A stretch of DNA of 64,000 nucleotides. It comes from an uncultured Acidimicrobiaceae bacterium. GTDB taxonomy: Bacteria; Actinomycetota; Acidimicrobiia; Acidimicrobiales; Bog-793. The stretch covers positions 641,031 through 705,030 of the forward strand of contig CAVXNB010000003.1 in NCBI GenBank assembly GCA_963763085.1. The letters run 5' to 3'. Below, piece after piece: positions 1-19,181 of the stretch. Within the stretch, counting starts at the first letter, position 1. Every line of letters starts with the position of its first letter. The notes under the pieces are model-generated. The model made no database searches, was not told the DNA's origin, and worked only from the letters and a program-made list of their open reading frames with translations. The translations under genes and the position numbers were made by a program.

Positions 1-221
1 CCGGCCATCGCCCGCCCGGCGATGAGCATCTCGGGCACGAAGAAGTCGCCCCGCTCGAAGCGCGCTCCGACCTCTTCCAACGAGGGGATGAGCGAGTCGA
101 ACAGCAACGTCTCGGGGTTGAGGCCCATCTCGAGCCCGGCGTTCGTGAGCTCGAGCACGGCGGGGGCGTTGCCCACGAGCGTGGCGTCGTACATCTCTTT
201 GAGCAGCTCTTCCTGGTTCAC
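1..221 (-). CDS. Corrinoid (B12-binding) methyltransferase protein, N-terminal cap domain, runs off window
   Basis: Own translation from GTG at 221: MNQEELLKEMYDATLVGNAPAVLELTNAGLEMGLNPETLLFDSLIPSLEEVGARFERGDFFVPEMLIAGRAM, the MetH/MtbC cap motif; start overlaps the iclR stop (GTGA). Confidence 0.88.
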   Translation of the reverse strand, partial: MNQEELLKEMYDATLVGNAPAVLELTNAGLEMGLNPETLLFDSLIPSLEEVGARFERGDFFVPEMLIAGRAMA

Positions 222-985
222 GCTGCACCTTCCTTGTGTGGCCGGTAGCCGAGCACCGCGGACAGGGCGTTGGCCTCGGCCATGCACTGGGCGGCGACGT
301 CGGCCAACCGGGAGGGGCTGAATCGAGTCGAGGGGCCGGAGACCGAGATCGCGGCAACGGCCGCGGCCCCGTTCCGGTACACCGGTGCTGCGACGGCGAC
401 GAGGCCAGGCTCGAGCTCCTCGTCGGTGACGGCGAAGCCTCGCCGGCGGACCTCCGACAGCTCCGAGTTGAGCTGGGAACGACGAGTGATCGTCTTCGGC
501 GTCAGCCGTGCCAGGCGCCCGGCCGGGAGCGTGGCGGCCCCCGAGGCGAGAAGCACCTTGCCGAGCGCTGTGCAGTGAAGCGGCACCGAGCGCCCGAGCC
601 AGTTCGTGCCTCCCAGCACGTAGTGCGTGTCCACTTGAGCGATCTGCTCGACCATCCCCCGGTGCACGACGCCGAGGTTGATCGTCTCGCGCGTGACCTC
701 GCCGAGTCGCTCGAGATACGGGCGCGCGACGCCGACAAGGTCGGTCTCGGCGTTGCCGCGCAACGCGTAGCGGACGAACGCGTCCCCGGGCCTGAACGCG
801 CCGCTCGACTCGCGCCGGATCAGCCCGTTGCGCTCGAGCGCGAGCAGTATGCGCGACGTCGTGCTCCTCGCGAGCCCGGTGGAGGTCGCCAGCTCCGTGA
901 ACGTGACGGAGTCCGTCGCGTCCACGACCTGGCGGAGGAGGGTTGCGGCTCGGTCGATCGACTGCGAGCCGGTCGGTCTTGTCAT
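218..985 (-). CDS. IclR family transcriptional regulator
   Basis: QSIDRA..HTH (LARSTTSRIL), HCTALGKVLLA and RGFAVTDEELEPG..VAAPV motifs; ATG at 985 preferred over ORF start 1021. Confidence 0.93.
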   Translation of the reverse strand: MTRPTGSQSIDRAATLLRQVVDATDSVTFTELATSTGLARSTTSRILLALERNGLIRRESSGAFRPGDAFVRYALRGNAETDLVGVARPYLERLGEVTRETINLGVVHRGMVEQIAQVDTHYVLGGTNWLGRSVPLHCTALGKVLLASGAATLPAGRLARLTPKTITRRSQLNSELSEVRRRGFAVTDEELEPGLVAVAAPVYRNGAAAVAAISVSGPSTRFSPSRLADVAAQCMAEANALSAVLGYRPHKEGAA

Positions 986-1096
986 GGCGCTCACTTGCAC
1001 TTGTTCCACGTTACGAGACAAAGTTCTACTATGTGAGTGTAGGGTTCACGCCCAGGAGCGTCAAGCGAGCGGTAATCCGCGTGGAACGAGGTGGCG

Positions 1097-2537
1097 ATGT
1101 TCGTCAACAAAATGGCCCGGTACGAGCTTCTCTCCCCCGAAGCGGTCGAGATCCTCGACCGTGGCTGGCGTCGAATCGTCTCGGAGATCGGCATCCAGTT
1201 CGTGAAACCCGAGGCCGTCGAACTGTTCCGCCAGGCCGGCCAGACCGTCGACGAACAGACGGTCAAGCTCGATCCCGATTTCGTGCTCGAACAGGTGGCC
1301 AAGGCGCCACGCGAGTTCGACGTGCAAGCGCGCAACCCCGCCAACACGGTGCACATCGGCGGTGACCACATGGTCTTCAGCGGGGTATACGGTCCGCCGT
1401 TCGTGAGGGAGGCGGACGTCCGTCGCGACGCCACCATGACCGACTTCCGCAAGTTCTCGATGCTGGCCCAGAGCTTCCCGGAGCTCGACTCGGCCGGAGG
1501 CGTCATCTGCGAGCCCAACGATGCGCCGCTCGACTCCCGGCACCTCGACATGATCTTCGCTCTACAGACCCTCACCGACAAGATCTACATGGGCAACGTC
1601 GTCTCGGGTCCGAACGCCGTCGACACCATCAAGATGACCGAGATCCTCTTCGGCGGCCGTGAGACCATCGAGCAGACGCCGGCGACGATCTCGCTCATCA
1701 ATTGCAATTCGCCGCTGCGGTGGGACGATCGCATGCTCGACGCCCAGTTCGAATACAACCTTGCCAACCAGCCGGTCGTGCTCACGCCGTTCCTCTTGAT
1801 GGGGGCGATGTCACCCGGTGACTATCCCGGCCGCGCTGGTCCAGCAATTGGCCGAGGCGCTGTCAGGAATTGCGCTCGCGCAGCTCATCCGCCCGGGATG
1901 CCCGGTCATCTTCGGGTCGTTCCTGTCGAACATCGACATGCAGTCGGGCTCGCCGTGCTTCGGAACACCCGAATCCGCGATCGGCCTGCTCTGCACGGGG
2001 CAGCTTGCCAGGCACTTCGGCCTGCCGTTTCGAACCGGGGGCGGCCTGACCTCGAGCCAGACACCGGACGCCCAGGCCGCCTACGAGGCGCTCATGACAA
2101 TGCTGCCGACCTTCCTCGCCGGGACGAATTGGGTCATGCATTCCGCCGGTTGGCTCGAGGGCGGCCTCGTGAGCTGCTACGAGAAGTTCATCATCGACAT
2201 CGAGCTGCTGAGGATGCTGCGGGTCGAGTTCACGCCGCTCGAGATCGACGAGGCCGCGCTGGCCTTCGACGCTCATCTCGAGGTCGGCCATGGCGGTCAT
2301 TTCCTCGGCGCGGAGCACACGATGACCCGCTTCCGTGATTGTTTCTACCGCCCGATCCTGTCGTCCTCGATGAACTTCGAGCGCTGGTCCCGCCAGGGAG
2401 CGCTCGACGCCGCCGCGCGGGCGTCCGCGATCTATCAGAAGACACTCGACGAATACGAGCAGCCGCCACTCGACGACGCCATCCGCGAAGAGCTCGAGGA
2501 CTACGTCAACCGCAGGCGCGCCGAGCTCGGGGACTGA
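1097..2537 (+). CDS. Trimethylamine methyltransferase (MttB superfamily, non-pyrrolysine, MtgB-like); +1 frameshift near 1815
   Basis: ORFs 1091..2338 and 1818..2537 join (LMGAMSP|VTIPAAL) if one C is removed from tcacccggtg; motifs NCNSPLRW, GSPCFGTPE, HSAGWLEGGL; no in-frame amber codon. Confidence 0.9.
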
Positions 2538-2555
2538 CTGAAGCGCCGGCGGTGC

Positions 2556-3662
2556 TCAGCCGACCCGGTAGCGGGCCAGCGCGTCCTCGTCCAGGACGAT
2601 GCCCAGGCCGGGCCTGGCCGGCACCACGAGATCCCCGGCGGCGTCCACCTCGAGTCGCTCGCCGAGCATGAAGTCCCGCCGCTCAGGGACCCACGAGGGG
2701 GGATCGAAGGGATACTCGAGATACGGGCCGCCCCCGACGCCGGCCGCGAGATGGAGGTTCACCAGCAGCCCGATCCCGTTCGACCACGTGTGCGGGGAGA
2801 ACCACCTCGACTTCGCCAGGACGAGCTCGGCGAAGGTCCTGGCGCGCGAAATCCCCACCGACAGCACCGCGTCGGGTTGGTAGACGTCGAGCGCGTCCGC
2901 CTCGAGCAGTGCCAACAGCTCGGGAAAGCTCCGCACCATCTCGCCGCCGGCGACGCGTACCGGGCCGTCGGCGCGGAGCCCGGCAAGCCCCTTCAGATCG
3001 GATCCCTCCAGCGGCTCCTCGAGCCAGAACAGGTCGAGCTCGGCCAGCTGGGCCGCGATGTGCCGCGCGGCGCGGGGGTCGAGAGCCGGGCGCGTGTCGC
3101 CGGCCATGCGCCAACCCTGGTTGAGATCGACCATCAGCGTCATAGCCGGCAGCGCCTCGCGCACGGCCCTGACCGCCGCCAACCCGGTGTCGAGGTTCTC
3201 CGGGTCGATCCGCAGCTTCATGGCCCGCAGTCCCATGGCCGCGAATTCGTGCGCGACCTCAACCCGGCGCGCCGGCTCGACCAGTGCTCCCGTCGAACCG
3301 TAGGCCGGCAACCGGTCGGTCACGCCACCGAGGAGGCGCGCCACGGGCACGCCGTAGACCTGGCCGGCGATGTCCCAGAGGGCCGCTTCGAGTGGCCACG
3401 GCCGAGGGCCGTGGAACGCGATGGTCTCGAGAGCCCGCACGTGGCGGCCGATGGCGAGCGGGTCCTCACCGATGAACAGTTCGGCATACGGCTCGAAACC
3501 GTCCATCGTGTCGCCCGACCCGACGCCGCGCAGGCCCTCGTCGGTGTCCACGAACACGAGCGTCGCCGCATAGCGCCGTCGGGGGACGGGATCCCAAGCA
3601 GCGGGGAAGGGCGGATCGAGCGGTAGCTCGAGGCGGACGAGCTCGATCCGGCTGATCTTCAC
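2556..3662 (-). CDS. Mandelate racemase/muconate lactonizing enzyme (enolase superfamily)
   Basis: KxR (MKLR), metal ligands in DLNQ, WLEEP and GGE, QPD, PHTW. Confidence 0.9.
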   Translation of the reverse strand: MKISRIELVRLELPLDPPFPAAWDPVPRRRYAATLVFVDTDEGLRGVGSGDTMDGFEPYAELFIGEDPLAIGRHVRALETIAFHGPRPWPLEAALWDIAGQVYGVPVARLLGGVTDRLPAYGSTGALVEPARRVEVAHEFAAMGLRAMKLRIDPENLDTGLAAVRAVREALPAMTLMVDLNQGWRMAGDTRPALDPRAARHIAAQLAELDLFWLEEPLEGSDLKGLAGLRADGPVRVAGGEMVRSFPELLALLEADALDVYQPDAVLSVGISRARTFAELVLAKSRWFSPHTWSNGIGLLVNLHLAAGVGGGPYLEYPFDPPSWVPERRDFMLGERLEVDAAGDLVVPARPGLGIVLDEDALARYRVG

Positions 3663-4153
3663 GGGGTGCGGTAGAAGGGGTTCCAGGGGTCCTTGCCGGC
3701 GAGCAGGAACTCCTCAACCGTGGGGAATCCCGCCTTGCCGTTCCGCAGCGACTGGAACATCGCCTCGGTGTTGTTGGCGTAAACGGCCTCGGCGTCGTCG
3801 GCCTCCGGATTCACCCAGACCGCCGCGATGAGGACCAGATCGCCACAGTCCGAAGCATCTATGGTCCCGTCCTCGAGGGCGAGGGCGACACCGGTCGCAA
3901 CACCCGCCTGGGCCGGGCCCCAGGTGAGGTCGCCGTGCGACGGGCTCGAGATCGCAGCCTTGTTCACGAACAGCGTGGGCGGAGTGACCGCGACCCCCGG
4001 TCGCCCGATCGCCACGAAACGGGCATAGCCGGCGCTCGGGCTCGCGAGCGAGCTCGCCCACGCCGCTCCGACGGGCCCCTGGCGTTCGCCGAGGACCGTG
4101 TTGATGTGGGCCGCGTTCCTGCCGGGTCCGATGAACGACTCACCGATCTGCAA
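3659..4153 (-). CDS. fae: Formaldehyde-activating enzyme (Fae) family protein
   Basis: IGESFIG..NAAHINTVLG...PPTLFVNK..TWGPAQAGVA.GV...LIAAVWV; TTG start with GGGAGGAG RBS. Confidence 0.82.
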   Translation of the reverse strand: MQIGESFIGPGRNAAHINTVLGERQGPVGAAWASSLASPSAGYARFVAIGRPGVAVTPPTLFVNKAAISSPSHGDLTWGPAQAGVATGVALALEDGTIDASDCGDLVLIAAVWVNPEADDAEAVYANNTEAMFQSLRNGKAGFPTVEEFLLAGKDPWNPFYRTP

Positions 4154-5276
4154 GGCCGTTCTCCTCCCAGGGCCGGAGGACGCCACGAGCGACCTCGCCG
4201 CTGTTCATGTCCGCGAACGCCTTGTTGACGTCCTCGAGCCGGTACCGGCGGGTGACGAGCCGGTCGAGTGGCAAGCGACCCTCGGCGTGGAGCCGCAGGA
4301 TCATGGGCATGTCGATCGCAGGGCGGGACGAGCCGTAGAGGGTTCCGGTGACCACCTTCTCGGAACGGACGAGCTCTGGCCCCGGAAGCGTCACCGTCGC
4401 CTCTAGCGGCGGTATCCCGACGGTGACGATCATCCCGCCGGGTCTCGTCGCCGCGAACGCCAGCTCGGTCAGCCTCGTCAACCCGGCCGCCTCGAAGGCG
4501 TAGTCCAATCCCCCACCGGAGTGCTCCAGCAGTGCCTCGAGCAGATCTGGGTCGCGCCCGTCGAGCGCCACGGTCGCGCCGAGCTCGATCGCCAGCGCCC
4601 TTTTGCTCTCGACGGGCTCGACGCTGATGATCGTCTCTGCGCCGGCGAGGCGAGCGCCCATGACGGCGGAGAGGCCGACACCGCCCGCCCCGAAGACGGC
4701 CACGCTCGACCCCGGAGTCACCTTCGCCCGGTTGACGACGGCTCCGATACCGGTCATCACGGCGCATCCGACGAGCGCGGCGACCTCGAGATCGGCGCCT
4801 GGCGGAAGCACGATGCAGGAACGGGCCGAGACGACCGCGTCCCGGGCGAACGTGGACAGGTACGAGTAGTGGTGAACCGGCTGCCCGTCGCGGGACAGGC
4901 GCATTCCGCCGCCGGGAAGCGATCCGCTCATCTCCGACAGCGCAACCTCGCAGAGCGAGAGGCGGCCCTCGAGGCACCGGCGACAGCGACCACAGTTGGG
5001 CAGCCACGACAGCACGACCTGATCGCCGACCGAGAGGGTCGTCACCTCCGCGCCGAGCTCTTCGACGACGCCGGCGCCTTCGTGGCCGAGAACCGCTGGA
5101 AGAGGGGTCGGCGACGATCCGCTCACCGCGTTCCAGTCGCTGTGGCACACACCACTCGCCTCGATCCGGACGCGGACCTCTCCCTTCCCCGGAGGCGCCA
5201 ATTCGAGGTCTCCGACCTCGAGCGCGCCTCCGATCTCGTCGAGCACCGCCGCTCTGGTGATCATCGCGGCCGTCAT
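4140..5276 (-). CDS. Zn-dependent alcohol dehydrogenase (class III/formaldehyde dehydrogenase-like MDR)
   Basis: GVCHSD, GHEGAG, CGRCRRC..C, GCAVMTG, GAGGVG. Confidence 0.92.
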   Translation of the reverse strand: MTAAMITRAAVLDEIGGALEVGDLELAPPGKGEVRVRIEASGVCHSDWNAVSGSSPTPLPAVLGHEGAGVVEELGAEVTTLSVGDQVVLSWLPNCGRCRRCLEGRLSLCEVALSEMSGSLPGGGMRLSRDGQPVHHYSYLSTFARDAVVSARSCIVLPPGADLEVAALVGCAVMTGIGAVVNRAKVTPGSSVAVFGAGGVGLSAVMGARLAGAETIISVEPVESKRALAIELGATVALDGRDPDLLEALLEHSGGGLDYAFEAAGLTRLTELAFAATRPGGMIVTVGIPPLEATVTLPGPELVRSEKVVTGTLYGSSRPAIDMPMILRLHAEGRLPLDRLVTRRYRLEDVNKAFADMNSGEVARGVLRPWEENGLADR

Positions 5277-5345
5277 GGCGTGGGCCCCACAGCGAGCGGC
5301 TCGAGCCCGGCTCTCGCATCGACTCGTCTGATCACGTCGCAGATC

Positions 5346-6853
5346 CTAGAGGTCGGGCGGTCCCGCCAGGACGAGCGAGGCGGCGGCTGTGATGTCCGGA
5401 CCGAGCGGGCGGTCGGCGAGGTCGCTCGACAGCACGGCGCCGGCTCGCTCGAGCCAGGCGCGCCCCGCCGGGGTCGTTGGGCCAAGCCCTCGGAGCCCGA
5501 TCGCGCGACCGCGGCGACGAGCTCGGCGCCGACCACGATGCCGAGGGCATCGATGGCGTCCCCGAGCTGCTCCACGCCAAGGGGGGCGTGACTGGCGAGA
5601 TGCTCGATCCCCGCCGAGACGGTCACGGGCCAGCACGACGTGCTCGTCGCCGCGAGGCGCAACCGGTCCATCGCCGATTGCGCCGTGTACTCGAGGATCA
5701 TCACGCCAGAGGCGCCGGGCGTGCCGTCGGTGAGGAATCGGGTGACGCCCGTCATCGAGGGGTCGCAGGCGAGGCTGAGGCGTGCGAGGGACCCGAGACC
5801 CACGCCGGCCAGGGTGCTGCGCACCTGGTCGAGAGCGACCGCGAGCTCGCTCGTGAGAAAGTTCCCGTTCGCGAGCGCGACATCGCCGTCGTCTCCGGCG
5901 ATCGCGCCGGCGCAACCGTCTCCGGCGATGAGCGGGTTCTCCGCCGCAGCGTTGATGTCGACCTCTACGATCCCGACGAGACGGTCCAGGGAGTCCTGGG
6001 CGGCGCCGTTGAGCTGCGGAGCGCACCTGAGCCCGAACGGATCCTGAAGGCTGGCGGCGACCCCGGGGAGGCCGTCGCCGAGGACCTCGCGCACCCGGCG
6101 GGCCGAGATCGACGGTCCCCGGAACGGGCGGGCCGCGTGCACGCGGGGATCGAAGGCGGCGAGGTTGCCGCCACACGCCAGCGCGCTCAGCCCGGCCACT
6201 GCATCGGCCGAGGCGACAAGGCGGGCTGCGTCGGTTGCCAGGAGCGCCGCACGCCCGAGGGTGCACGCATTGCTCGACATGAGCGCGAGCCCGTCGCCGG
6301 CGCCGAACTCGACCGGTGGCGGTGGGCTGTCGCCGTCGTGCCAGACGCCCTCGCCCGCGAGTGCGAGCCCGACTTCCGCCAGAGCTGTCAGGTCGCCGGT
6401 CCCGATCCCGCCGAGCGCGTGCACCACCGGCGTCGCACCCGACTCGAGCGCGGCGACGATCCGATCCACGACCACCGGTTCGATGCCGGCGCCTCCGGCG
6501 AGGAGCTGGTTCGCCCGTACGACGAGCAGAGCCCGGGTCTGCGCCCGATCAAGGACCCGCCCGACTCCGCCGGCGTGGCTCCTGAGCAGAGCAAGGGAGT
6601 GGTGCCGCGCCTCGGTCGCCGGCACCGGCTCGAGCAGCTTGGCCCCCACGCCCGTCGTTCGGCCGTAGACGTGAGCCCCGCTGGCGATGACTCGTGAGGC
6701 GCGCTGCGACGAAGCCTCGACACGATCGCGGGCGGCAGGCGACACGGTGACGCCGGCGCCGAACCGAGCCACCGCCGTCACGGCGGCGATGTCGAGGCTC
6801 CTCCCGTCGAGCTCGATGGTCGTCCTCGCCGCTTCGGCCGAGCGACCCGTCAC
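5346..6853 (-). CDS. Histidine/aromatic ammonia-lyase-fold protein lacking the ASG (MIO) motif; frameshift near 5505
   Basis: VYGRTTGVG, LLRSHAGGVG, QDPFGLRCAPQ, ENPL..NGNF; MIO loop reads GGIGTGDL; C-terminus (..DRPLGPDI..) continues in the frame ending at 5346. Confidence 0.85.
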
Positions 6854-7842
6854 GCGTTGCGGGTCGGCAGGCCGGCGGCCTTCCAGGCACGGATGCCGCC
6901 GTCAACGTCGGTGGCACGGAGCAGGCCGAGGTGGCGCAGACTCGCCGCAGCCAGGCTCGAGGCGTACCCCTCGGAGCACAGCACGATGATCTGCGCGTCG
7001 TAGCGGGCAAGCTCGACGATCCGGGCGTCGCTCCTGGGATCGAGGCGCCACTCCAGCACGTTGCGCCCGATGATGACCGAGCCCGGCACCTCGCCTTCCT
7101 CGCGCCGCTGCTCGAGGGGCCGGATGTCGACCATCGTCGCTCCGGCGGCCATGGCCCGATAGGCGGACTCGGGATCGAGTCGTTCGATCTCGAGGCGAGC
7201 GTCGGCCAGGAGATCGTCGACGCTCTGCAGGGCTCGACGCCGGCGGAGCTCCCGACGCGGCCCTTCCGGCGACGTCACGACGACGGTCTCGTTCGCGACC
7301 AAGCCGCCTGGCGTTAGCTCGTAGTAGGTCATCGTGACGAGCGGCGGCGAGTAGGCGTGGACGCTGACGGCTTGGGCACTGCCGGAATGGCTGACGTTGT
7401 GCACGTGCGCGGGACCGAAGAAGATCCGCTCGGACGCCGACAACCGGCGCGTGCGGACGCGGTGGCCGCCCCCGGTGCGGAGCTGCTCGAGCAGCACGCC
7501 GTCGGCGACGCAGAAGGAGCCGGACGATCCGCCGTGGTCGTGCCAATCGGTGTCCTGCCCCGGTTGCCACGCGAGCAACCAGACGTCACAGGTCTCGGAG
7601 CGATGGAGCGGCATATACCAGCGCTGGGCGGCCGACGCGACGACGAGGTCCTGCCACAGCCTCCGCTTGGCCGCCACCGCGCCGGTCAGCAGGCCGAGCT
7701 GGCGAGGCGACAGCCGGGCTTGTCCGTGAACGTAAGGGCCAACGAATTCTGCGATCTTCCGCCGGCGGTCATCGTCGATGACGGCCGCGCCCGTCGCGCC
7801 CTCCTCCACTTCCAACCCCGTGCGGCCTTCGGATGCGAGCAT
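6850..7842 (-). CDS. Cysteine/thiol dioxygenase fused to rhodanese domain
   Basis: DVWLLAWxPGQxTxWHDH..HVH..SVHAYSPPL (3-His cupin), then VDIRP..GRNVLEWRLDP..VLCSEGYASS..GG..AW (rhodanese), in one frame; start uncertain. Confidence 0.85.
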   Translation of the reverse strand: MLASEGRTGLEVEEGATGAAVIDDDRRRKIAEFVGPYVHGQARLSPRQLGLLTGAVAAKRRLWQDLVVASAAQRWYMPLHRSETCDVWLLAWQPGQDTDWHDHGGSSGSFCVADGVLLEQLRTGGGHRVRTRRLSASERIFFGPAHVHNVSHSGSAQAVSVHAYSPPLVTMTYYELTPGGLVANETVVVTSPEGPRRELRRRRALQSVDDLLADARLEIERLDPESAYRAMAAGATMVDIRPLEQRREEGEVPGSVIIGRNVLEWRLDPRSDARIVELARYDAQIIVLCSEGYASSLAAASLRHLGLLRATDVDGGIRAWKAAGLPTRNA

Positions 7843-8001
7843 CGTTCCCCTGGTCACTCCAACTGCCAATTCATGCCTTCCAGAAGGGAGAATTGTACCT
7901 GATACAGCCGGTGCACTGGAGATACCGCGCACGGGGCGCGGATCGGGCCCGGCTTCACAGCCGGGCCCGCGTCCGTGCACAACCGCCCTAAGGCGGCGGA
8001 T

Positions 8002-9723
8002 TCAGCTCTTCGTGGCGTTCCAGAGGAACAACTGCGCCTGCCCCGTCGGGTAGACACCCTTGACGTTCTTTGCCGTCGCGCAGAGATAGTCGTAGAAGTA
8101 CGGAAAGATGATCGGAGTCTCGTCGAGGAGAAGCTTCTCGATCTTGGCGGCTAGCGTGCGCTGCTCGGACAGGTCAACGGCGGCCACGAACTCCTTCGAG
8201 AGCTTGTCGTAGGTGGCGTTGTTGAAGTGAGCGGCGTTCCAGGCGCCCGTACCCTTCTTCTTGTTGTAGGTCTGAAGCGGCGCCTCGAGATACAGGTTCG
8301 GCACCGCCCGGGCTCCGTAGTCGACCAGGCTCATCTCCCCGTCCAGCCAGTCCGACTTCCCGAACACGCCATCGCCGTAGTACTTGCCGGGCTCCTCGAC
8401 CACGACGGTGATGTCGACGTTGATCGCCTGTGCCGCCTGCTGGACGATTGTCGCGAAGTGGGGAATCTCCTGGGTCGTCTCGGTGAGCAGTGGGGTCGCG
8501 AAGCCGCCCGGGACGCCCGCCTTGGCGAGCAGCTGCTTGGCCTTCTTCAGGTCCATGCTGCGCTGGCCGACGACCGGGTTGTAGGACTTGAAACCGGGGT
8601 AGAACGGGTTGTCGTTGCCGATCACCGCGAGGTCGTCGAACAGCGCCTTGATGATGGCCGGGCGGTCGAGCGTGAAGGCGATGGCCTGGCGGACATACTT
8701 GCTCGTGAACGGGTGCTTGTCGCACCGCATGGAGAGCTGCCGTTGCAGGGCGCACTTCAGCTTGATCACGTTCCAGTTCCCGTTGAGCAGCTGAGGGCTG
8801 ATGTTGTAGGTGAACTGGTCCATGACGTCGATCGAGCCGGCCTCGAGGGCCGCGGCCATCGGCTGCTCGTTGGCGTAGAAGGTGACGACGACCTTGCTCG
8901 GCTTGGCCGGTGAGCCCCAGTGGTGCGGATTGCGGACCAAGGTGCAGCCGGACTCGGGTGAGAAGGACGAGATCTTGAACTTGTTCGTGCCGATGAAGCC
9001 GGGACCTACCTTGTTGTAATTGCTGTAGTCGTAGCCGTGAGGGACGATGATCATGTTGTAGTTGTCTTCGGAGCAGGCGTCGACGAAGCTCGCATCCGGC
9101 GCCTCGAGATGGAAACGAACGTGATGGTTGTCGAGCTTCTCGACTCCGCCGGGGCTGAGCGTGCCACCGAAGACCGACAGAGCGTTGCCGCCGGTTACCG
9201 TGCTGGCCTGGGACTTGAAGCTGTAGACGACGTCGTCGACGGTCATCGGCTTGCCGTTGTTGAACTTGACGCCCTGACGAATCTTGAAAGTCCAGACCGA
9301 GGCGTTGTGGTTCGAGTACCAGCTCGTCGCGAGCCACGGGTGGTAGACCAGCTTCTGGTCGCTGAAGACGAGAAACTCACCGATGTTGCCGAGCACTTCG
9401 AGGCCGCCCTGGTCTTCGATGAGAATCGGGTTGAGTGCCGTGGCAGGTTTGATCATCCCGACATTGATCGTCCCGCCGGATGCGGCCGCGGTCCTCGGGG
9501 ACGTGGCTTCCCTTGCGGCGAGCGGGCGCTCGTGACGTTCGAGGACGCCACCGCGGGCGGCGATGATGCTGCCGACCACTGGGACCGACATGCCGAACAT
9601 GGTGGCGCGCCGCATGAAGTCGCGCCGCGTGATCCGGTCCCCCAGGTATTCGTCGATGACGTGTTCGAGTATCGGCCCGGATTCCTTGCGGATCGGGTCT
9701 ATCCGACCATAGTCAGTTTCCAC
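8002..9723 (-). CDS. Peptide/nickel-type ABC substrate-binding protein (family 5), twin-arginine signal
   Basis: TRRDFMRR; WTFKIRQGVKFNNG..VDDVVYSF; VRQAIAFTLDR. Confidence 0.92.
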   Translation of the reverse strand: METDYGRIDPIRKESGPILEHVIDEYLGDRITRRDFMRRATMFGMSVPVVGSIIAARGGVLERHERPLAAREATSPRTAAASGGTINVGMIKPATALNPILIEDQGGLEVLGNIGEFLVFSDQKLVYHPWLATSWYSNHNASVWTFKIRQGVKFNNGKPMTVDDVVYSFKSQASTVTGGNALSVFGGTLSPGGVEKLDNHHVRFHLEAPDASFVDACSEDNYNMIIVPHGYDYSNYNKVGPGFIGTNKFKISSFSPESGCTLVRNPHHWGSPAKPSKVVVTFYANEQPMAAALEAGSIDVMDQFTYNISPQLLNGNWNVIKLKCALQRQLSMRCDKHPFTSKYVRQAIAFTLDRPAIIKALFDDLAVIGNDNPFYPGFKSYNPVVGQRSMDLKKAKQLLAKAGVPGGFATPLLTETTQEIPHFATIVQQAAQAINVDITVVVEEPGKYYGDGVFGKSDWLDGEMSLVDYGARAVPNLYLEAPLQTYNKKKGTGAWNAAHFNNATYDKLSKEFVAAVDLSEQRTLAAKIEKLLLDETPIIFPYFYDYLCATAKNVKGVYPTGQAQLFLWNATKS

Positions 9724-9820
9724 GGTCTCCCCCTTTTGTCAGGTTTGTGGTGTCGGTCGTGCGAGATGAGTTGGGAGCATAGCGTGCCCACCATAATCAA
9801 GCCGAAACGCCTTCGTCACC

Positions 9821-11920
9821 TCAGTTTTCCTGCCCGGAGGGCTCCATCGTATCCGACACTGTCGGCATCCGAGCCGCGGCCTCCTGCAGGGTGCGGAGAT
9901 CGGCGAGCGGGATGTGGCAGCTCATCATGTGACCCGGCTCGACCTCGACGAGTGGCGGCTCGGTGGACTCGCACACCCCGCTCGACAGCCGGCGCGGGCA
10001 GCGGGTGTGAAAGACGCAGCCCGACGGGGGGTGGGCCGGGCTGGGGATGTCCCCGGTCAACTTGATGCGTTCCCGGCGCTGGCCGTCCAGGCTCGGCACC
10101 GCCGAGAGCAGCGCCTCGGTGTAGGGATGGTGCGGACCGGAGAACACGGTCTCGGCGAGTCCGAACTCCATGACACGGCCGAGGTAGAGCACGGCGATCC
10201 GATCGGCCAGGTAGCGCACGACACCGAGGTCGTGCGAGATGAACAGGTACGTCACCTGTTCGCGGCTCTGGAGGTCGGCGAGCAGGTTCAAGATCGCAGC
10301 TTGGACCGACACGTCGAGGGCAGAGGTCGGCTCGTCGCACACGATGACACGCGGGACGCCCGCGAAGGCCCGGGCGATCGCCACCCTCTGTTTGAGGCCT
10401 CCGGACAGCTGGGTCGGATGAAGAGGCAGGTGCCGGTTCTCCATCCGCACCGAGTGCACGATCTCGGTGAGCCGCGCTTCGCGCTCGGCGCCGGAAAGTC
10501 CGGCGAGCTTGTAAAGCGCCCTCCCGATCAGGTACCGAACGCTGTGACGCCGGTTCAGGGCAGAGTCTGGGTTCTGGAAGACGATCTGCACCGCCTTGAG
10601 CTGGTCGTGGCTACGTTCGGCGGAGGTGGAGCCGAGCGGGCTCCCCTCGAGCTCGATCACAGCACCCCCGTCCGGTGGCGTCAGGCCGAGCAACACGCGC
10701 GCGAGCGTGGTCTTCCCGCTGCCCGACTCCCCGACGAGCCCGAGCGTCTCGCCGAGACGGATGTCAAGGTTCACACCTACGAGGGCCTGCACCTTCTCCC
10801 CGCTCACCGAGAAGGTCTTCGAGACGCCCCGGAGGCGGATCACCGGATCCGCTCCCGGGTCTGCGACCACGAGCCCCACGTCCTCCGGTGTCGTCCTCGG
10901 GAGCGTCGCCGCCCGCTCATGGAAGTGGCAGCGCGATATCCGATCCGCGCTCACCGGGTACATCGGCGGCTCTTCCTCCAGGCAGCGCTGCTCGGCGAGC
11001 GCGCAACGCTCGGCGAAGATGCAGCCGGCAGGCGTTGAACCAGGCGCCGGCAGGAATCCCGGGATCGTGTCGAGGCGACCATGGTCCTTGCGGTGGCCGC
11101 GGCGGGGGATGCAGCGCAAAAGCCCCACAGTGTAGGGGTGCCGGGGCTGCTCGAAGACCTGCTGCGCCGGTCCCTCCTCCACGATCTCGCCGGCATACAT
11201 GACCCCGACGCGGTCACACATCTTGGCGATCACGGCGAGGTTGTGGCTGATGAACAGCACCGAGGTGTGGAATTCCTGGCCGAGCAGCTCCACAAGGTCG
11301 AGCACCTCGGCCTCGACGGTGGCGTCGAGGGCGGTGGTCGGCTCGTCCAGGATCAGCAGGGACGGTTCCGAGGCCAGTGCCATGGCGATGACGACCCTCT
11401 GCAGCATGCCCCCTGAGAGCTGGTGCGGGTAGGACTTGAGCACCCGTCCAGGATCGGAGATCTGGACCGTCTTCAGCGCCTCCTCGGCGCGCTGGAGTGC
11501 CTCGCGCTTGCCGAGCCCGGCGATCTCGAAGACCTCGGCGACCTGACGCCCGACGCGGATCGAGGGGTTGAGTGCGCGACCGGGCTCCTGGTACACCATC
11601 GAGACCGTGCCCGCCCTCATCGCGCGCAGCGCGCCCTTGTTCAACGAAGCCAGGTCCTGGCCGTTCACGGCGATCGACCCCGCGCTGAGCCGCCCGTTGC
11701 GCGGCAGGTAGCGCGCGATGGCGAGCGCCATCGTCGACTTGCCGGAGCCGGATTCCCCGACGAGCCCGAACGACTCGTGCCGGCCGATCTGGAACGAGAC
11801 GTCTCGCAGCGCCAGCCGGTCCTTGTCCCGGACCCGGTAGGTCACCTCGGCGTGATCGACCTCGAGCGCGAGCGCCTGGTCGTGGGTGGCGTCGAGGTCC
11901 GCCGGGGCTTCGATGGTCAT
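9821..11920 (-). CDS. ABC transporter ATP-binding protein, fused DppD/DppF-type
   Basis: Two GESGSGK Walker A, LSGG signatures, two HPYT oligopeptide C-terminal domains; ATG at 11920 overlaps the permease stop. Confidence 0.93.
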   Translation of the reverse strand: MTIEAPADLDATHDQALALEVDHAEVTYRVRDKDRLALRDVSFQIGRHESFGLVGESGSGKSTMALAIARYLPRNGRLSAGSIAVNGQDLASLNKGALRAMRAGTVSMVYQEPGRALNPSIRVGRQVAEVFEIAGLGKREALQRAEEALKTVQISDPGRVLKSYPHQLSGGMLQRVVIAMALASEPSLLILDEPTTALDATVEAEVLDLVELLGQEFHTSVLFISHNLAVIAKMCDRVGVMYAGEIVEEGPAQQVFEQPRHPYTVGLLRCIPRRGHRKDHGRLDTIPGFLPAPGSTPAGCIFAERCALAEQRCLEEEPPMYPVSADRISRCHFHERAATLPRTTPEDVGLVVADPGADPVIRLRGVSKTFSVSGEKVQALVGVNLDIRLGETLGLVGESGSGKTTLARVLLGLTPPDGGAVIELEGSPLGSTSAERSHDQLKAVQIVFQNPDSALNRRHSVRYLIGRALYKLAGLSGAEREARLTEIVHSVRMENRHLPLHPTQLSGGLKQRVAIARAFAGVPRVIVCDEPTSALDVSVQAAILNLLADLQSREQVTYLFISHDLGVVRYLADRIAVLYLGRVMEFGLAETVFSGPHHPYTEALLSAVPSLDGQRRERIKLTGDIPSPAHPPSGCVFHTRCPRRLSSGVCESTEPPLVEVEPGHMMSCHIPLADLRTLQEAAARMPTVSDTMEPSGQEN

Positions 11921-12898
11921 TGCGCGAGCACCGACTCGATCGCGTCGGCGACGAGGTTGACCGCCACCACGAGCGAGACGATGGCGAGCGCCGGGAAGAG
12001 CGTCTCCCACCAGTAGCCCGCGGGGAGATACGAGTAGCTGTAGAAGATGTCGGCGCCCCAGTCCGGCGTCGGCGGCTGAATCCCGAAGCCGAGGAACGAA
12101 AGGGTCGCGATGGCAAAGATCGCGTACCCGAGGCGCACCGTGAACTCGACGAGGATGGGCGAAAACACGTTGGGGAGGATCTCGGCGAACATGATGTGGA
12201 TTGCGCCTTCGCCTCGCAGGGATGCGGCCGCGACGTAGTCGAGCTCGCGCTCTTGAAGAACGGCCGTGCGGACGGTGCGGGCGATGATCAAGGCGAACAC
12301 GAATCCGATGACGACGATGAGCGTGAGCTTCGAGGGGCCGAGGGCAACCACGAACAGGAACGCCAGGATCACCACCGGAAGGGCGAGCACGGCATCGACC
12401 AGCCGGCCGACGACGTTGTCGATGACGCCCCTGAAGTAGCCCTGGACGAGACCGATTGCCGTGCCGACGACGGTGCCGAGGAGCGTCGCGAGCGGGGCGA
12501 CGATGAGGATGTCGCGCGAACCGGCGAGGACACGCGAGAGGACGTCGCGCCCGCTCGAGTCGGTGCCGAACCAGTGAGCCGCCGAGGGCGCGAGGTTGTA
12601 CTGGAGGAGGTTCCCCTGGGTCGGGTTGTAGGGAACGAAGTACTGGCTGAACAGTGCACAGACCACCCAGAAGAGGAGAATTGAACGCGCCGATGATGAA
12701 GGTGGGGGACCGCACGAGCTGGTGGAGGTGCTCGCGGCGGATTCTCCGGGCGGAGACGTCGACCGTACCCGCGGCGGAACCGGGTCTGACCGGGGCCGAA
12801 CCGGACATCGGCGGAGGCGTGAGCGAGGGAGCCTCGAGATCGACGGGGCTCGCCGCCGACGGGGCCATCACGCCGTCACCTAGCTCGCCGCTCGGCAT
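11917..12898 (-). CDS. ABC permease (DppC-like); frameshift near 12680
   Basis: HWFGTDSSGRDVLSR, EILPNV, LSFLGFGIQPPTPDWG; N-terminus (..LVRSPTFIIGAF) lies in the adjacent frame. Confidence 0.88.
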
Positions 12899-13851
12899 CA
12901 GTCAGCCCCCTGCAGCCGCACCCGGGGGTTGAGCAAGGTTTGAAGGACGTCGGCGATGATGGTTGCGACGAGGTAGACGACGCCAATGACGAGAATGCCG
13001 GCCTCGAGCATCGGGAAGTCCTTGTCCGTCGCCGCCGTGAAGATCAGCCGCCCGAGCCCGTCATAGTTGAACAACGTCTCGACGACGACCAAGCCTCCGA
13101 TCAGGTAGCCGCACTGGGTGGCGACGACGGTGATCGTCGGCAGCAACGAATTGCGCAGCACGTGCCGGAAGATCACCACCCGGCGCGGAAGCCCCTTCAA
13201 CGTCGCCGTGCGCACGTAGTCGGAATCGAGCGCCTCCACCGTCCCCGCCCTGGCCATGCGGGCGATGTAGCCGAACAGCACGAGGACGAGCGGGATGGCA
13301 GGCAGCAACAGATACCTGAGCTGGGTGGCGAAGGAGGCGCCGGCGGGCCAAGCGGCCGTGACGGGGAGCACCTTCAACCAGATCGCGAAGACGACGATGA
13401 GCACGATGCCTGAGACGAACTCAGGCACGGTCGAGAACGACAGGCCGAAGACGCTGATGAATCGGTCGGTTCCCTTGCCAACGTGGAGAGCAGCGACGAC
13501 GCCGCCGAGGATGGCGAGGGGCACCACGATGACGAACGCCACGGCAGCCAGCTTCAGCGAGTGGCCGAGCGCCGTCACCACGAAGGGGCGTACGGGCGAC
13601 TGGTACTGGTAGGAGGTCCCCATGTTGCCCCGGACGAAGTCCGAGACCCAGCTCCAGTACTGGGTGAGAAGCGGCCGGTCGACGCCGAGGCTCTTGTTGA
13701 GGGCGTTCACAGCGTGCTGCGACGCGAACGGGCCGAGGATCGCCCGCCCCGGATTGCCGGGCAGGACCTGGCCCGCGAAGAAGATGATGATGCTCAAGAG
13801 GACAAGCGTCACCAACGCCAGCCCCAAACGCTTCAGCAGGAACACCGTCAA
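12898..13851 (-). CDS. ABC permease (DppB-like)
   Basis: DYVRTATLKGL..RHVLRNSLLP, VETLFNYDGLG, NPRVR. Confidence 0.93.
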   Translation of the reverse strand: MTVFLLKRLGLALVTLVLLSIIIFFAGQVLPGNPGRAILGPFASQHAVNALNKSLGVDRPLLTQYWSWVSDFVRGNMGTSYQYQSPVRPFVVTALGHSLKLAAVAFVIVVPLAILGGVVAALHVGKGTDRFISVFGLSFSTVPEFVSGIVLIVVFAIWLKVLPVTAAWPAGASFATQLRYLLLPAIPLVLVLFGYIARMARAGTVEALDSDYVRTATLKGLPRRVVIFRHVLRNSLLPTITVVATQCGYLIGGLVVVETLFNYDGLGRLIFTAATDKDFPMLEAGILVIGVVYLVATIIADVLQTLLNPRVRLQGAD

Positions 13852-13958
13852 GCCGTGGACCCCCTTCCCCCAGCTTGCAATACGGTCCTAAGCGGGCCGA
13901 CGAACGACGGTACCAGTGGTGAACGCTAGCGGCCGAGATCCAGGAGCACAACGCGCCT

Positions 13959-15422
13959 CTACAGGCCCGTATCCAGGGTACCGCTCAGTGCCGCCGCGCC
14001 GATGAGCTCCGCGAGGCGCCCGGCCTCGACCCCCTGGTCTCGGACGACCTTTCCGTCGACGGGTGCGAACAGCGATCGCACAAGCTCCAGCAGTGGTTCG
14101 AGTGGCGGGGCGGGGCGCCGATCGGTGACATAGAGGGCCTGACTCGAGACGATGGCGAGGATCGCGAGCGTCTCCTCCAGGCACTCGGCCGCCCTGCGCT
14201 CCTTCCGGTAGGCGCTGAACGTCGCCGAGGAGACGTCGTTCTGGGGATCGTTGATGCTCGCCGGCAGCAATGTCGGCGCGGCGGCGGTGCGCGCCTCCTC
14301 GGCGAATGAGCCGGCCACCCACCCGAACAGGTTCGTCGCCCCTCCCGCCGAGTCGGGTTCGAAACCGCGGGGGTTGAGAAAGTGTGGCAAGCCGGACACG
14401 CTGCTCAGGTGCATCGCCGTGACCTGGCGCTCGGCCAGGAGCGCGAGCTCCGCCCAGGCGAGCGAGAGCATGCCGAGGGCGGCCGGGGCGGCTGCATTGT
14501 GGTAGCCGCCGGTCGACAGCACCCGCCCGAACGGATGAGCCGCGTCGGGCATCACGTAGACGGGATTCTGCGTGACCGAGCGAAGAGCCACGGAGGCGGC
14601 CCGCTCAGTCTCGTCCACCGCTCGGCGCGCCTGACCCAACAGGCGGGGAACGATACGGAAACTCACCGGGGCCTGGTGGCCGAGGCGACCCTCGGCTTCG
14701 GCGCCGTCGAGATGGGAACGGATCGACCGCAACGCCGCCGTTTCCTGATCGTCGCCCCAGAGGGACTCGAGCACCTCGTCGTAGGCTTCGAGCGGCGCTT
14801 TGATGGCATCGATCGACAGGGCGAAGAACCGCTCGGCGACCGAGAGGCGGTGACGGGCGTGCAGCGCCGCGTCGGCGAGCAAGGCCGACGACGCCGGCGA
14901 GCCGTTGATGAGGGCCATCCCTTCGCCCTCCTCGAATCCGAGGTCCGACAGCCCCATCGTCACGTGACGCATGGGCAGGACCTCCCCGGCTCCGACCTGC
15001 CCGTCCAGCGGCACGCGCGGAAGCGGGAGATCGAGCAGCCCTGCGACGCGCTCGGCGACGACGGGGCGGACCTTCGCATGGCCCTCGACGAAGTCCGCGA
15101 GCCGCGCGAAGAGGATCCCGCGCACCACCCGGTCGTCGAGGAACCCGCCCCCGAAGCCCCGGCCCGAGCGGCCACCGAACGAACGCGCGAACGCCCGCTG
15201 GTCCTCGGCGGGAATCGCCACGGTCACCTCGAGCCCGGCCCGCGTGGTGATGCCGTAGAAGAAGGCGGTCCGGTCCGAGTCGAGCAGGGCTATGAACGCC
15301 GCCCGTGCCTCGCCCATGACCTTTCTGGCGACCGGCCCGATCTCGACCGACTCTCCGTCGACCGCAACACGGCGGAAATTCTCGATCGTGAAGTCGTCCC
15401 GGGTGTCGACGACGACGGTCAT
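13959..15422 (-). CDS. Second ammonia-lyase-fold protein lacking the ASG (MIO) motif
   Basis: FYGITT, ARLADFVEGHAKVRP, MALINGSP, QAPVSFRIVP, QNPV..GGYH, QND; MIO loop reads GQVGAGEVL; ATG at 15422 with GAGGAGG RBS. Confidence 0.83.
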   Translation of the reverse strand: MTVVVDTRDDFTIENFRRVAVDGESVEIGPVARKVMGEARAAFIALLDSDRTAFFYGITTRAGLEVTVAIPAEDQRAFARSFGGRSGRGFGGGFLDDRVVRGILFARLADFVEGHAKVRPVVAERVAGLLDLPLPRVPLDGQVGAGEVLPMRHVTMGLSDLGFEEGEGMALINGSPASSALLADAALHARHRLSVAERFFALSIDAIKAPLEAYDEVLESLWGDDQETAALRSIRSHLDGAEAEGRLGHQAPVSFRIVPRLLGQARRAVDETERAASVALRSVTQNPVYVMPDAAHPFGRVLSTGGYHNAAAPAALGMLSLAWAELALLAERQVTAMHLSSVSGLPHFLNPRGFEPDSAGGATNLFGWVAGSFAEEARTAAAPTLLPASINDPQNDVSSATFSAYRKERRAAECLEETLAILAIVSSQALYVTDRRPAPPLEPLLELVRSLFAPVDGKVVRDQGVEAGRLAELIGAAALSGTLDTGL

Positions 15423-15430
15423 CTGCCTCC

Positions 15431-17581
15431 TCAGCTTCGGCTCGCGACTGCGGCCGCAGGAGCGTACTGGGCGGCGGCAGGCGGGGCGCCCACGCCGACT
15501 CGTGAGCTCCAGCGCTCCCACAGAGCCTCCGCCAGCCGTACCGTTACCGGTCCGGTTCTCCAGGACCGATAGCCGCGCAGCTCCCCCACCGGCGTCACGC
15601 CCCTTATGGCACTCGTCAGCAGCACCTCGTCGGCCGACGCGAGATCGCAGAGGGCGAGCGGCCCGACCGACACCTCCAAGCCGATGGCAGCGGCCGCGCG
15701 GAGGAGGAGCTCCCTGGTCGATCCCGGGAGGATGCGACCGTCGGCGGCCGGCGTGCTGACCACCGTTCCCGAGACCGCGAAGACGTTCGCCCTCTCCGTC
15801 TCGAGGAGCGAACCGTCGATGTCGACCAGGAGAAGCTGCTCGTGCTCGCGCAAGCCGAGTGCGCTGCGACGCTCGGCCAGGATGCGGCGATCCTGCCATT
15901 TGTGCGGACCGAGACCGCCCGGGACCACGTCCGGTACCAACACCACCGGAGACACCGGCAAACCGGAGAATGCCTCCGGGGCCGGCGCGATGGAGAGCTC
16001 GCTCTCGAGCGCCCCGCCCGATGTCGGGTACACGTGCACCCGCAGACGTTGAGGACCGTGGGATCGCGCTGCGCACTCGACCACGTCGGCGCCGAGACGG
16101 GCCGCCGGGCGCGACCCGTAGAGGCACGAGACGCTCGCCGCCAGCCTGCCGAGATGCGATTCGAGGTCGACCGGGCGGCCGGCGAGGACGAGGATCGTCT
16201 CGAAGACGCCGGCGTCGATTTCGGGCCTGCCGGACCCGCGCCGGGCAGCCTCACACCGGAGCGACGGGTCGAGCTCGGCGCCGATCGCTCCGAGCAGCGG
16301 CCGAGCCTTGTCGAAGCACTCCTCGAGCTCCCGGGCCGGGTCGGAGTCGGCAACGACTCCGCCGCCGACTCCGAGCCAGACCTTGCCGCCCGCCACCTCG
16401 AACGTCCGGATGGCGACGTTCAGCTCGAGTCCGGATAGCGGGCTCGCGATCCCGATGGCTCCGGTGTACACCTCGCGTGCGGTCGTCTCGAGCGAGGCGA
16501 TGAGCTCCATCGCCCGGACCTTCGGCGCCCCGGTGACCGAACCGGGTGGGAATGCCGCCCGCAGGAGATCGGCGTCGGACGCCCCGGCGGACAGCTCGCC
16601 GGTCACGTCCGAGACGAGGTGCCAGACGCCCGGGTGCTCCTCGGCGCGGCACAGCTCGGGAACCGCCACGCTGCCGTAGCGGCAAACGCGCCCGAGATCG
16701 TTGCGCATGAGATCGACGATCATCACGTTCTCCGCCCGGTCCTTGGCCGAACCGAGGAGGCGGCGACGGCCCGGCTCGGCGCTGCCGTTGCGCTTCGCCG
16801 TGCCCTTGACTGGCGAGCTGAGGACATGACGACCCCGGCGCCGCAGGAAGAGCTCCGGCGAGAAGCTCGCCACGGCGAACGAGGGATGGCCGAGGTAGGC
16901 ACCGAAACGAGGCTCGAGAACACCTGCGCCGGCGCAGAACAGCTCGAGAGGCTCTCCCGAGAAATCCGCCTGGAGACGTGTGCAGACATTCACCTGGTAG
17001 ACGTCACCCGAGCGGATGTGCTCGATGGCCCGCGACACCGCCCGCACGTGCGTCTCGGGCTCCGGGCTCATCAGAAACGGGCCGCATTCGAACTCGCCCC
17101 CCTCCCCCACGCACGCCGTGCCGCGCCGCTGCCAGGCATCGAGGCGCGACTCGAGCCGCTCTGACTGCTCGTCGGACCACAGGGCTTCGAACCACCACGC
17201 GCCGTCGGCGTCGCAGCGCAGGACGTGATCGTAGAAGGCGAGGATCGACCCCGGCACCGGGACCGGGCGGTCCGGTGGGGACGGCAGCCGCTCGACGAGG
17301 CCTCCGAGCCCGTAGCCCAGGTACCCGACCCAGCCCCCACCGGTCGCTCCGGCGAGCCCCGAGGTGACCTCGGGCTGGTTGTCGAACACCGAAAAGGGGT
17401 CGTCGGCGTCTTCGAGGACGACGAGCGGGTCAGAGCCCACCAGGGCGCCCCCACCGGCCCAGGCGCCCACCAAGGCGAAGGGTCGTGCTTCTGCGCTCGC
17501 CGCCCTGAGCACCTCGCTCGGGCTTGCCCGCAGCGCGAGCGGCGCACGGACGACGCGAACCGACGGTGGGACGCGGATCAC
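15431..17581 (-). CDS. Aminodeoxychorismate synthase component I fused to class IV aminotransferase/ADC lyase (PabB-PabC)
   Basis: GDVYQVN, SPELFL, PVKGT, ENVMIVDLMRND, PPGSVTGAPK; then GVFETIL, HKW, ILPG.TR. Confidence 0.88.
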   Translation of the reverse strand: MIRVPPSVRVVRAPLALRASPSEVLRAASAEARPFALVGAWAGGGALVGSDPLVVLEDADDPFSVFDNQPEVTSGLAGATGGGWVGYLGYGLGGLVERLPSPPDRPVPVPGSILAFYDHVLRCDADGAWWFEALWSDEQSERLESRLDAWQRRGTACVGEGGEFECGPFLMSPEPETHVRAVSRAIEHIRSGDVYQVNVCTRLQADFSGEPLELFCAGAGVLEPRFGAYLGHPSFAVASFSPELFLRRRGRHVLSSPVKGTAKRNGSAEPGRRRLLGSAKDRAENVMIVDLMRNDLGRVCRYGSVAVPELCRAEEHPGVWHLVSDVTGELSAGASDADLLRAAFPPGSVTGAPKVRAMELIASLETTAREVYTGAIGIASPLSGLELNVAIRTFEVAGGKVWLGVGGGVVADSDPARELEECFDKARPLLGAIGAELDPSLRCEAARRGSGRPEIDAGVFETILVLAGRPVDLESHLGRLAASVSCLYGSRPAARLGADVVECAARSHGPQRLRVHVYPTSGGALESELSIAPAPEAFSGLPVSPVVLVPDVVPGGLGPHKWQDRRILAERRSALGLREHEQLLLVDIDGSLLETERANVFAVSGTVVSTPAADGRILPGSTRELLLRAAAAIGLEVSVGPLALCDLASADEVLLTSAIRGVTPVGELRGYRSWRTGPVTVRLAEALWERWSSRVGVGAPPAAAQYAPAAAVASRS

Positions 17582-19034: not shown

Positions 19035-19115
19035 CCACCAACTCTGTCGTACCTAGGGGTCTGAGAGGCGGCACCCTCGGCAACGAGGCACCTCCTCACC
19101 AGGTCCAGCTCCCTA

Positions 19116-19132: not shown

Positions 19133-19181
19133 CTAGGTAGACTCACGACACCCGTTGCGTGCTGGTGTTCGAGGAGGGCAG

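Follow-up and report, generated by a model that had tools for sequence, protein, structure and literature searches.

A lyase operon and a choline/glycine-betaine island side by side in an uncultured Acidimicrobiaceae bacterium: a candidate route for ergothioneine-like substrates

Does a run of neighbouring catabolic genes represent a single pathway, or the place at which two unrelated units happen to meet? The question is raised by the first 15,422 nucleotides of a 64,000-nucleotide stretch of DNA (the window) from an uncultured Acidimicrobiaceae bacterium of soil (assembly GCA_963763085.1, contig CAVXNB010000003.1), which has a G+C content of about 68% and lies on the contig here called C3 of a 4.69-Mb genome (G000; 8 contigs, 85.8% complete). 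An initial annotation had read these genes as one island, in which an ergothioneine- or hercynine-like betaine is imported, its sulfur is oxidised, trimethylamine is eliminated by two lyases lacking the 4-methylideneimidazole-5-one (MIO) cofactor, and methyl groups are removed by a B12-dependent methyltransferase with capture of the one-carbon (C1) unit. Pfam and NCBIfam searches found every listed gene in its place, and the parts of that reading which concern the dioxygenase, the first lyase, the hut genes and co-conservation have stood, but the B12 demethylation step has not. The explanation favoured here, with middling confidence, is that two independent units meet at positions 2537/2556 and that one of them, the lyase operon, takes up and degrades a sulfur-bearing N-alpha-trimethyl-histidine, most likely ergothioneine. 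Ergothioneine is a widespread antioxidant whose breakdown releases trimethylamine, and the known breakdown routes begin either with ergothionase or with ergothioneine dioxygenase (ETDO).

The boundary between the two units

The first unit would be a choline/glycine-betaine island made up of window positions 1-2537 and some 15 kb upstream, and the second a minus-strand operon (2556-15422) for the uptake and degradation of an ergothioneine-like substrate. Within the window the first unit contains the 5' part of a corrinoid protein gene (1-287, minus strand, with a B12-binding_2 domain at 3-287; the full gene encodes 244 aa and extends upstream of the window), an IclR-family regulator (218-1021, minus strand) and, divergent from the regulator and forming one module with it, an MtgB-like methyltransferase of the MttB superfamily (1091-2537, plus strand; Pfam MTTB positions 24-262 and 264-500). 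The methyltransferase had been proposed to be of the non-pyrrolysine (non-Pyl) kind, and this agrees with an MTTB fold that has no in-frame stop (TAG) in either half. Its closest solved chain is 4yyc, followed by two glycine betaine methyltransferases, 9yce and 2qne, and at a great distance by the Pyl-type 7xcl. The family was sampled with 40 other genomes for MttB and lyase 1 and with a separate 24 genomes for lyase 2. MttB was found in 14 of the 40 (E<=1e-40), and at the 11 family loci that were fetched the corrinoid protein was adjacent in all and IclR in 10, with no ortholog of the lyases, dioxygenase, binding protein, enolase or alcohol dehydrogenase (ADH) within 10 kb of any of them. A class-wide search with the C-terminal half of MttB at E<=1e-90 returned none of 250 other genomes, a figure that is little informative at so strict a cut-off.

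Directly upstream of the window (G000:C3:626001-641030, locus L130) the minus-strand run continues with a methyl-tetrahydrofolate:corrinoid methyltransferase domain (Pterin_bind, 297 bits, cut-off 259), a RACo corrinoid reactivase, DUF1638 and a protein resembling methylenetetrahydrofolate reductase. Further out come an ammonium transporter, choline dehydrogenase (841 bits, cut-off 732), an electron transfer flavoprotein, a DAO-GCV_T protein of the dimethylglycine-dehydrogenase type and an aldehyde dehydrogenase, and the best NCBIfam match of the corrinoid protein is MtgC, at 210 bits and below the cut-off of 370. The simplest reading of this gene content is an island for the conversion of choline to glycine betaine and on to dimethylglycine, the last gene of which converges on the lyase operon. 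B12-dependent demethylation had been made part of the ergothioneine-like pathway. The corrinoid-IclR-MttB group is conserved on its own and here ends the choline/glycine-betaine island, to which the demethylation very probably belongs. The case is a reminder that adjacent units should not be read as one pathway by default.

Dioxygenase, lyases and hut genes

The dioxygenase of the operon is encoded on the minus strand at 6850-7842 (open reading frame 6850-7980; a start at 7842 is probable, giving 330 aa) and consists of a CDO_I cupin resembling ergothioneine dioxygenase fused to a rhodanese domain whose active-site Cys is conserved. The best solved matches of the cupin domain are 8qfr and 8qfl (phmmer E 7e-23), the next family being the cysteine dioxygenase (CDO) of B. 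subtilis at 8.5e-9. With an AlphaFold model of the dioxygenase (predicted local distance difference test score, pLDDT, 80) Foldseek ranks the 8QFx entries first, with TM scores of 0.82-0.86 on the target and 32-35% identity, under the title of ergothioneine dioxygenase from Thermocatellispora tengchongensis. Sequence and model both show a cupin of the CDO type that has a 3-His metal site together with the His147/Tyr149 motif. The motifs WHDH and HAYSPPL are invariant among 40 fused homologues, and the latter contains H147 and Y149, both of which are mutated in solved 8QFx entries. In sequence and in predicted fold the domain is closest to the solved ergothioneine dioxygenase, and to this extent the earlier assignment of a thiol dioxygenase for ergothioneine is upheld. 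Fused proteins of this kind are common in metagenomes (965 at E<=1e-10 among 8000 candidates scored), and the tallies were 116 of 301 for the class and 43 of 401 for the phylum, both including three unpublished genomes on which the other claims made here do not depend.

Both lyases, lyase 1 (5346-6853, minus strand, with a frame change near 5500) and lyase 2 (13959-15422, minus strand), have the aromatic amino acid lyase fold (PF00221; E 5e-96 and 3e-56 respectively), and that they are MIO-less, as first annotated, is confirmed by the absence of Ala-Ser-Gly in each. Lyase 1 has GIG-TGDL and lyase 2 VGA-GEV where the genome's own HutH, a true histidine ammonia-lyase (HAL) encoded on contig C4, has GASGDL, and the MIO loop of both is one residue shorter than in HAL. 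Lyase 1, the representative here of a clade (L1) marked by the motifs G-TGDL, SSNA and MILEYTA, retains the equivalents of Tyr53, His83, Gln277, Arg283 and Glu414 of P. putida HAL, with Tyr280 replaced by Phe and Asn195 by Ser, and its imidazole-binding His and Glu are present in SHAGG and GIEH. A pattern without the triad in which Tyr, His, Gln, Arg and Glu are retained is the one given for trimethylammonia-lyases in two Bertsova preprints. Judged by these residues lyase 1 looks like a trimethylammonia-lyase of the histidine-betaine type. Lyase 2 retains the equivalents of Tyr53, Gln277 and Arg283 and lacks those of His83 and Glu414 (GRGFGG, QND). It falls in a clade (L2b) with the motifs G-AGE, GRGFGG in place of SHA.G, QAPVSFRI and STGGYHN, and with Asn, Asp or Thr at the Glu414 position. 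Because this clade is without both His83 and Glu414, lyase 2 as predicted from its residues cannot bind imidazole in the manner of HAL. The idea that the lyases eliminate trimethylamine is consistent with the histidine-binding residues kept by lyase 1, but in lyase 2 the imidazole-binding His and Glu are missing. Searches of solved structures placed the ergothionase 6S7J 9th and 14th, and the only label that the ESM Atlas returned for lyase 2 was 'aromatic amino acid lyase'.

Lys384 of the T. denticola ergothionase binds the thiolate and separates ergothionase from histidine betaine lyase. Placed by spacing and not by alignment, the corresponding site is Tyr in lyase 1 and Trp in lyase 2. A further clade, L2a, found beside dioxygenases elsewhere, keeps Glu414, has Arg for His83 and, again by spacing only, carries Lys at the Lys384 site in the lyases of loci L005, L145 and L133; this Lys at the presumed position is a lead, not a result. 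The genome holds three further lyase-2 paralogs, one of them split, and one MIO-less HAL-fold paralog of a third type (C8:422922-424358, C4:587959-589389, C1:828785-830124 and C1:575081-576355). None of the four adjoins a copy of the cluster, the gene at C1:575081 adjoins a family-5 binding protein, and no second copy of the cluster was seen around the paralogs elsewhere in the genome. Another MIO-less HAL-fold variant stands beside a lyase-1 relative in Sciscionella (L007:11175-12989), with three loop residues deleted and His83, Tyr280 and Glu414 kept. Matches in Kribbella that at first resembled lyase 2 proved to have a Cys-Ser-Gly triad and are ordinary HutH.

The hutU, hutF and hutI genes, which had been placed about 20 kb away, do form an operon at 35631-39822 on the minus strand, 20-24 kb from the lyase operon, and all exceed their NCBIfam equivalog cut-offs (hutU 892 bits against 375, hutF 619 against 362, hutI 373 against 298). 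A search of the 85.8%-complete genome for EgtD gave no hit, as would suit scavenging better than the turnover of self-made ergothioneine. A second urocanase paralog lies about 45 kb past the end of the window (G000:C3:749405-751978; L132:9405-11978); its best NCBIfam match is S-methyl thiourocanate hydratase at 798 bits, below the cut-off of 880, ahead of thiourocanate hydratase at 675 and hutU at 625. Going by these scores it may be a consumer of the product of a MIO-less lyase, and a literature search for thiourocanate hydratase found nothing.

The best reading of sequence and model together, and one to which we give about an even chance, is a route for ergothioneine or hercynine that runs through the dioxygenase-rhodanese protein and a MIO-less lyase into the Hut pathway. 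The dioxygenase-rhodanese protein would oxidise the thione to the sulfinate, and the sulfinate would lose SO2 or sulfite to give hercynine, its sulfur being handled by the rhodanese domain. Lyase 1 would then eliminate trimethylamine to yield urocanate, the breakdown of which would be completed by HutU, HutI and HutF. A related compound would be handled by a co-travelling sub-module that consists of lyase 2, the importer of the peptide type and the ADH.

The importer is a complete Dpp/Opp-type system consisting of a family-5 solute-binding protein (SBP_bac_5; 8002-9723) with a twin-arginine signal, a double ATPase with two ABC_tran and two oligo_HPY domains (9821-11920), a DppC-type permease (11917-12898, with a frame change near 12690) and a DppB-type permease (12898-13851), all on the minus strand. 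The nearest solved relative of the binding protein is HbpA, a glutathione-binding protein. The proposed import of a betaine is made doubtful by this gene set, which is of the peptide (Dpp) and not the betaine type. An apparent permease-ATPase fusion, a '1025-aa' reading frame, was rejected as a shadow of the real genes: the true DppC has eight hydrophobic stretches, and the separate ATPase overlaps it via ATGA with a start at 11920. Downstream of lyase 1 lie a zinc-dependent ADH of the class III or N,N-dimethyl-4-nitrosoaniline (NDMA)-dependent type (4140-5276), a Fae-family protein (3659-4186; TIGR03126, 131.6 bits against a cut-off of 118) and, as the last gene of the operon, an enolase-superfamily enzyme (MR_MLE; 2556-3662), again all on the minus strand. 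The canonical role of Fae, in passing formaldehyde to methanopterin, is doubtful here because neither Mch (PF02289) nor Ftr (PF01913) was found in the 85.8%-complete genome, which leaves the supposed C1 capture unsupported. The nearest solved structures to the enolase-superfamily enzyme are of the acid-sugar dehydratase type. A role as an HpbD-type betaine epimerase was considered and set aside as speculation, no HpbD-type chain being among the six solved matches at E<=1e-20.

Elsewhere in the family, genome G323 has three L2b genes with the binding protein (57%), the permeases (71-78%) and the ADH (80%) and has neither lyase 1 nor the dioxygenase, and in G317 two L2b genes flank a binding protein of 37% identity. 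Because L2b genes adjoin importer orthologs in these two genomes, lyase 2, importer and ADH constitute a sub-module that in the window is merged with a dioxygenase/lyase-1 sub-module. In genome G487 Fae, enolase and ADH likewise accompany importer permeases.

At its upstream end the operon borders on a PabB-PabC fusion (chorismate-binding and class IV aminotransferase domains; 15431-17988, minus strand), which ends 8 bases ahead of the lyase 2 start and whose stop overlaps the ribosome-binding site, with a PNPOx-like gene further upstream. Since the start of lyase 2 abuts this stop, the transcription unit may begin further upstream, at PabB-PabC. Genes for a CHAP-domain protein, a NicO nickel/cobalt transporter and a small luciferase-domain protein (18336-20751) separate the operon from acyl-CoA genes and have no apparent link to the lyase operon.

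Conservation and rival readings

Within the family samples lyase 1 was found in 1 of 40 genomes (G315) and lyase 2 in 3 of 24 (G315, G317 and G323). The whole gene set occurs only at locus L001 of the sister genome G315, among 57 loci with lyase-1 relatives. A sample of the phylum comprised 20 dioxygenase loci from 42 positive genomes among 400 other Actinomycetota, and in 9 of the 20 a rhodanese gene is adjacent. An L2-type lyase, dioxygenase, rhodanese and L1-type lyase occur together at L005, L145 and L133, with partial sets at L144 and L146. Locus L145 repeats the window's order of L2-lyase, CDO, rhodanese and L1-lyase, the last with 47% identity, and at L005, in the Euzebyales, a betaine importer of the OpuA type is joined by overlapping genes for an L2-type and an L1-type lyase and then by separate CDO and rhodanese genes. 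In G487 the CDO, permeases (68% and 60%), ADH, Fae and enolase (59%) follow the order of the window within 28 kb, together with three MIO-less lyases. None of the 11 lyases that were examined, at these loci and in G487, has the triad. A 10-kb neighbourhood includes hutU at 20 of the 57 lyase-1-relative loci and a betaine-type OpuAC binding protein at 12, and the Kribbella relative of lyase 1 is accompanied by hutU, a true hutH (Cys-Ser-Gly), IclR and an importer of the OpuA type. The set of dioxygenase, rhodanese and MIO-less lyase is found again in distant Actinomycetota and stands beside betaine-type importers in two lineages.

A number of observations nevertheless weigh against the ergothioneine route preferred here. 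Conservation of the neighbourhood, which had been suggested as a check, is seen for the core set in distant Actinomycetota, but at all 14 Acidimicrobiia loci examined that have dioxygenase and/or rhodanese the lyase, binding-protein, Fae, enolase and MttB genes are missing, with one 28% ADH-family match and one 33% IclR match among them. In the phylum sample a HAL-fold lyase lies within 10 kb of the dioxygenase at only 4 of the 20 loci (L133, L144, L145 and L146), and the hutU-linked lyase-1 loci are mostly from the genus Kribbella and so not independent. The importer is Dpp-type, unlike the betaine type known for ergothioneine, and the route does not account for ADH, Fae, enolase or lyase 2. 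Identity to the solved ETDO is only about 34-45%, and the protein is fused to a rhodanese, whereas the solved ETDO chains (179-184 residues) are unfused. The published partner of that enzyme is reportedly a metal-dependent desulfinase, and no candidate for such a partner was recognised here. Finally, the mapping of Lys384 relies on the 28-residue spacing given for Swoo_3913, with no alignment.

In an alternative that we regard as possible, if the less probable, the substrate is not a histidine derivative at all, the dioxygenase-rhodanese protein being a general detoxifier of thiols or persulfides and the lyases acting on other trimethylammonio acids or on peptide-like betaines delivered by the Dpp-type importer. 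The dioxygenase-rhodanese module is indeed widespread without lyases, the importer is peptide-type with HbpA as its nearest solved relative, lyase 2 is without imidazole ligands, and in G323 and G317 the set of lyase 2, binding protein and ADH occurs without lyase 1 or dioxygenase. Against this, every HAL histidine-binding residue that was checked is retained in lyase 1, whose relatives adjoin hut genes and betaine-type importers, and among solved thiol dioxygenases that for ergothioneine matches the cupin far better than any other. The single pathway of the initial annotation, with the imported betaine also demethylated by MttB and the corrinoid protein and the C1 unit captured by Fae and ADH, is improbable. 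The adjacency is conserved in the sister genome (L001 in G315), both units handle trimethylammonium compounds, and at one of the 11 MttB family loci (L122) a Fae-like gene of 31% identity lies beside MttB. However, the corrinoid-IclR-MttB trio stands alone at all 11 loci, MttB is far more frequent in the family (14/40) than lyase 1 (1/40) or lyase 2 (3/24), it occupies the opposite strand and closes a complete choline/glycine-betaine set, MtgC is the top-scoring match of the corrinoid protein, and searches of the genome returned neither Mch nor Ftr. Moreover, going by published work, demethylation would strip the leaving group that MIO-less lyases require.

It might also be asked whether the region is functional, as MttB, lyase 1 and DppC each contain a change of frame and three such changes fall inside 15 kb; were they real, the region would be a relic undergoing gene decay, which we consider highly unlikely. 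One extra base (G) at 1817 splits MttB, putting the first MTTB segment in one frame and the second in the next. It is absent from the near-identical contigs of runs X1 and X2 (a 2-letter difference over ~270 bases), and MttB is in frame in 12 relatives, namely L001 and all 11 family loci. The MttB frameshift is an assembly error. In lyase 1 the text after residue ~450 turns Arg/Pro-rich and the homologous C-terminus resumes in another frame, ending at 5346. Only MttB was compared with independent contigs, the changes in lyase 1 (~5500) and DppC (~12690) being judged by pattern. No stop codons or deletions were seen in the genes, G+C at third codon positions is high throughout them, and the pattern across the genome is what indel errors of long reads typically produce. 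A second MttB paralog (G000:C4:1550285-1551722) is likewise split, at a different place. This observation and a completeness of only 85.8% in 8 contigs suggest that indel errors of long reads, and not decay, lie behind the changes in all three genes. A metallo-beta-lactamase-fold gene of the window also lies in two frames (34828-35571 and 35183-35449, plus strand), and both it and the split paralog agree with indel errors being frequent in the assembly. Frameshifts in genomes derived from long-read metagenomes should not be trusted at face value.

Comparison with known systems

A literature search, supplements aside, found no publication describing this gene combination, and the primary ETDO paper may already cover the neighbouring genes. 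Like the MtgB/MtgC/MtgA system, the MttB module combines a Pyl-free enzyme of the MTTB fold with RACo, a pterin-binding methyltransferase and a corrinoid protein encoded next to it. It differs from MtgB in that its nearest chain, 4yyc, is a putative methyltransferase whose deposit names no substrate, and from the system as a whole in being embedded with choline dehydrogenase and an enzyme of the dimethylglycine-dehydrogenase type. With the Hut pathway the locus shares hutU, hutF and hutI, the true HutH (Ala-Ser-Gly) being on another contig. Entry to the pathway would here be by elimination of trimethylamine instead of deamination, a link that we infer. The dioxygenase has the cupin/CDO fold and the WHDH and HAYSPPL motifs in common with the ETDO of T. 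tengchongensis (PDB 8QFL-8QFR).

The nearest functional parallel to the lyases is provided by the MIO-less trimethylammonia-lyases (ergothionase 6S7J and SO_3057, Swoo_3913 and SO_3299), which have the HAL fold without Ala-Ser-Gly, as do the lyases described here; Swoo_3913 is a histidine betaine lyase and SO_3299 an N(pi)-methyl-histidine-betaine lyase. With these enzymes lyase 1 shares the Tyr base and the ligands of both carboxylate and imidazole. The lyases of the window are, however, cytoplasmic and actinobacterial, form motif clades of their own, are not coupled to periplasmic reductases and are no nearer to 6S7J (E 1e-31) than to ordinary HALs.

More broadly, and only tentatively, Actinomycetota might possess an as yet undescribed aerobic route that joins a rhodanese-fused ergothioneine dioxygenase, a new clade of MIO-less hercynine lyases and the Hut pathway, with the importer, the ADH/Fae-like/enolase genes and a second new MIO-less clade that has lost its imidazole ligands degrading a trimethylammonium compound and a Fae-fold protein working without the tetrahydromethanopterin pathway. 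A genetic link between dioxygenase and a hercynine-type lyase would complete an oxygen-dependent route to urocanate in soil actinobacteria, and new chemistry on betaines may be encoded by the lyase-2 clade and by the ADH/Fae-like/enolase trio. The parts, namely ETDO, trimethylammonia-lyases, MtgB systems and the Hut pathway, are known; what is new by comparison is their physical coupling in Actinomycetota, the two uncharacterised lyase clades and the conserved trio of ADH, Fae-like and enolase genes.

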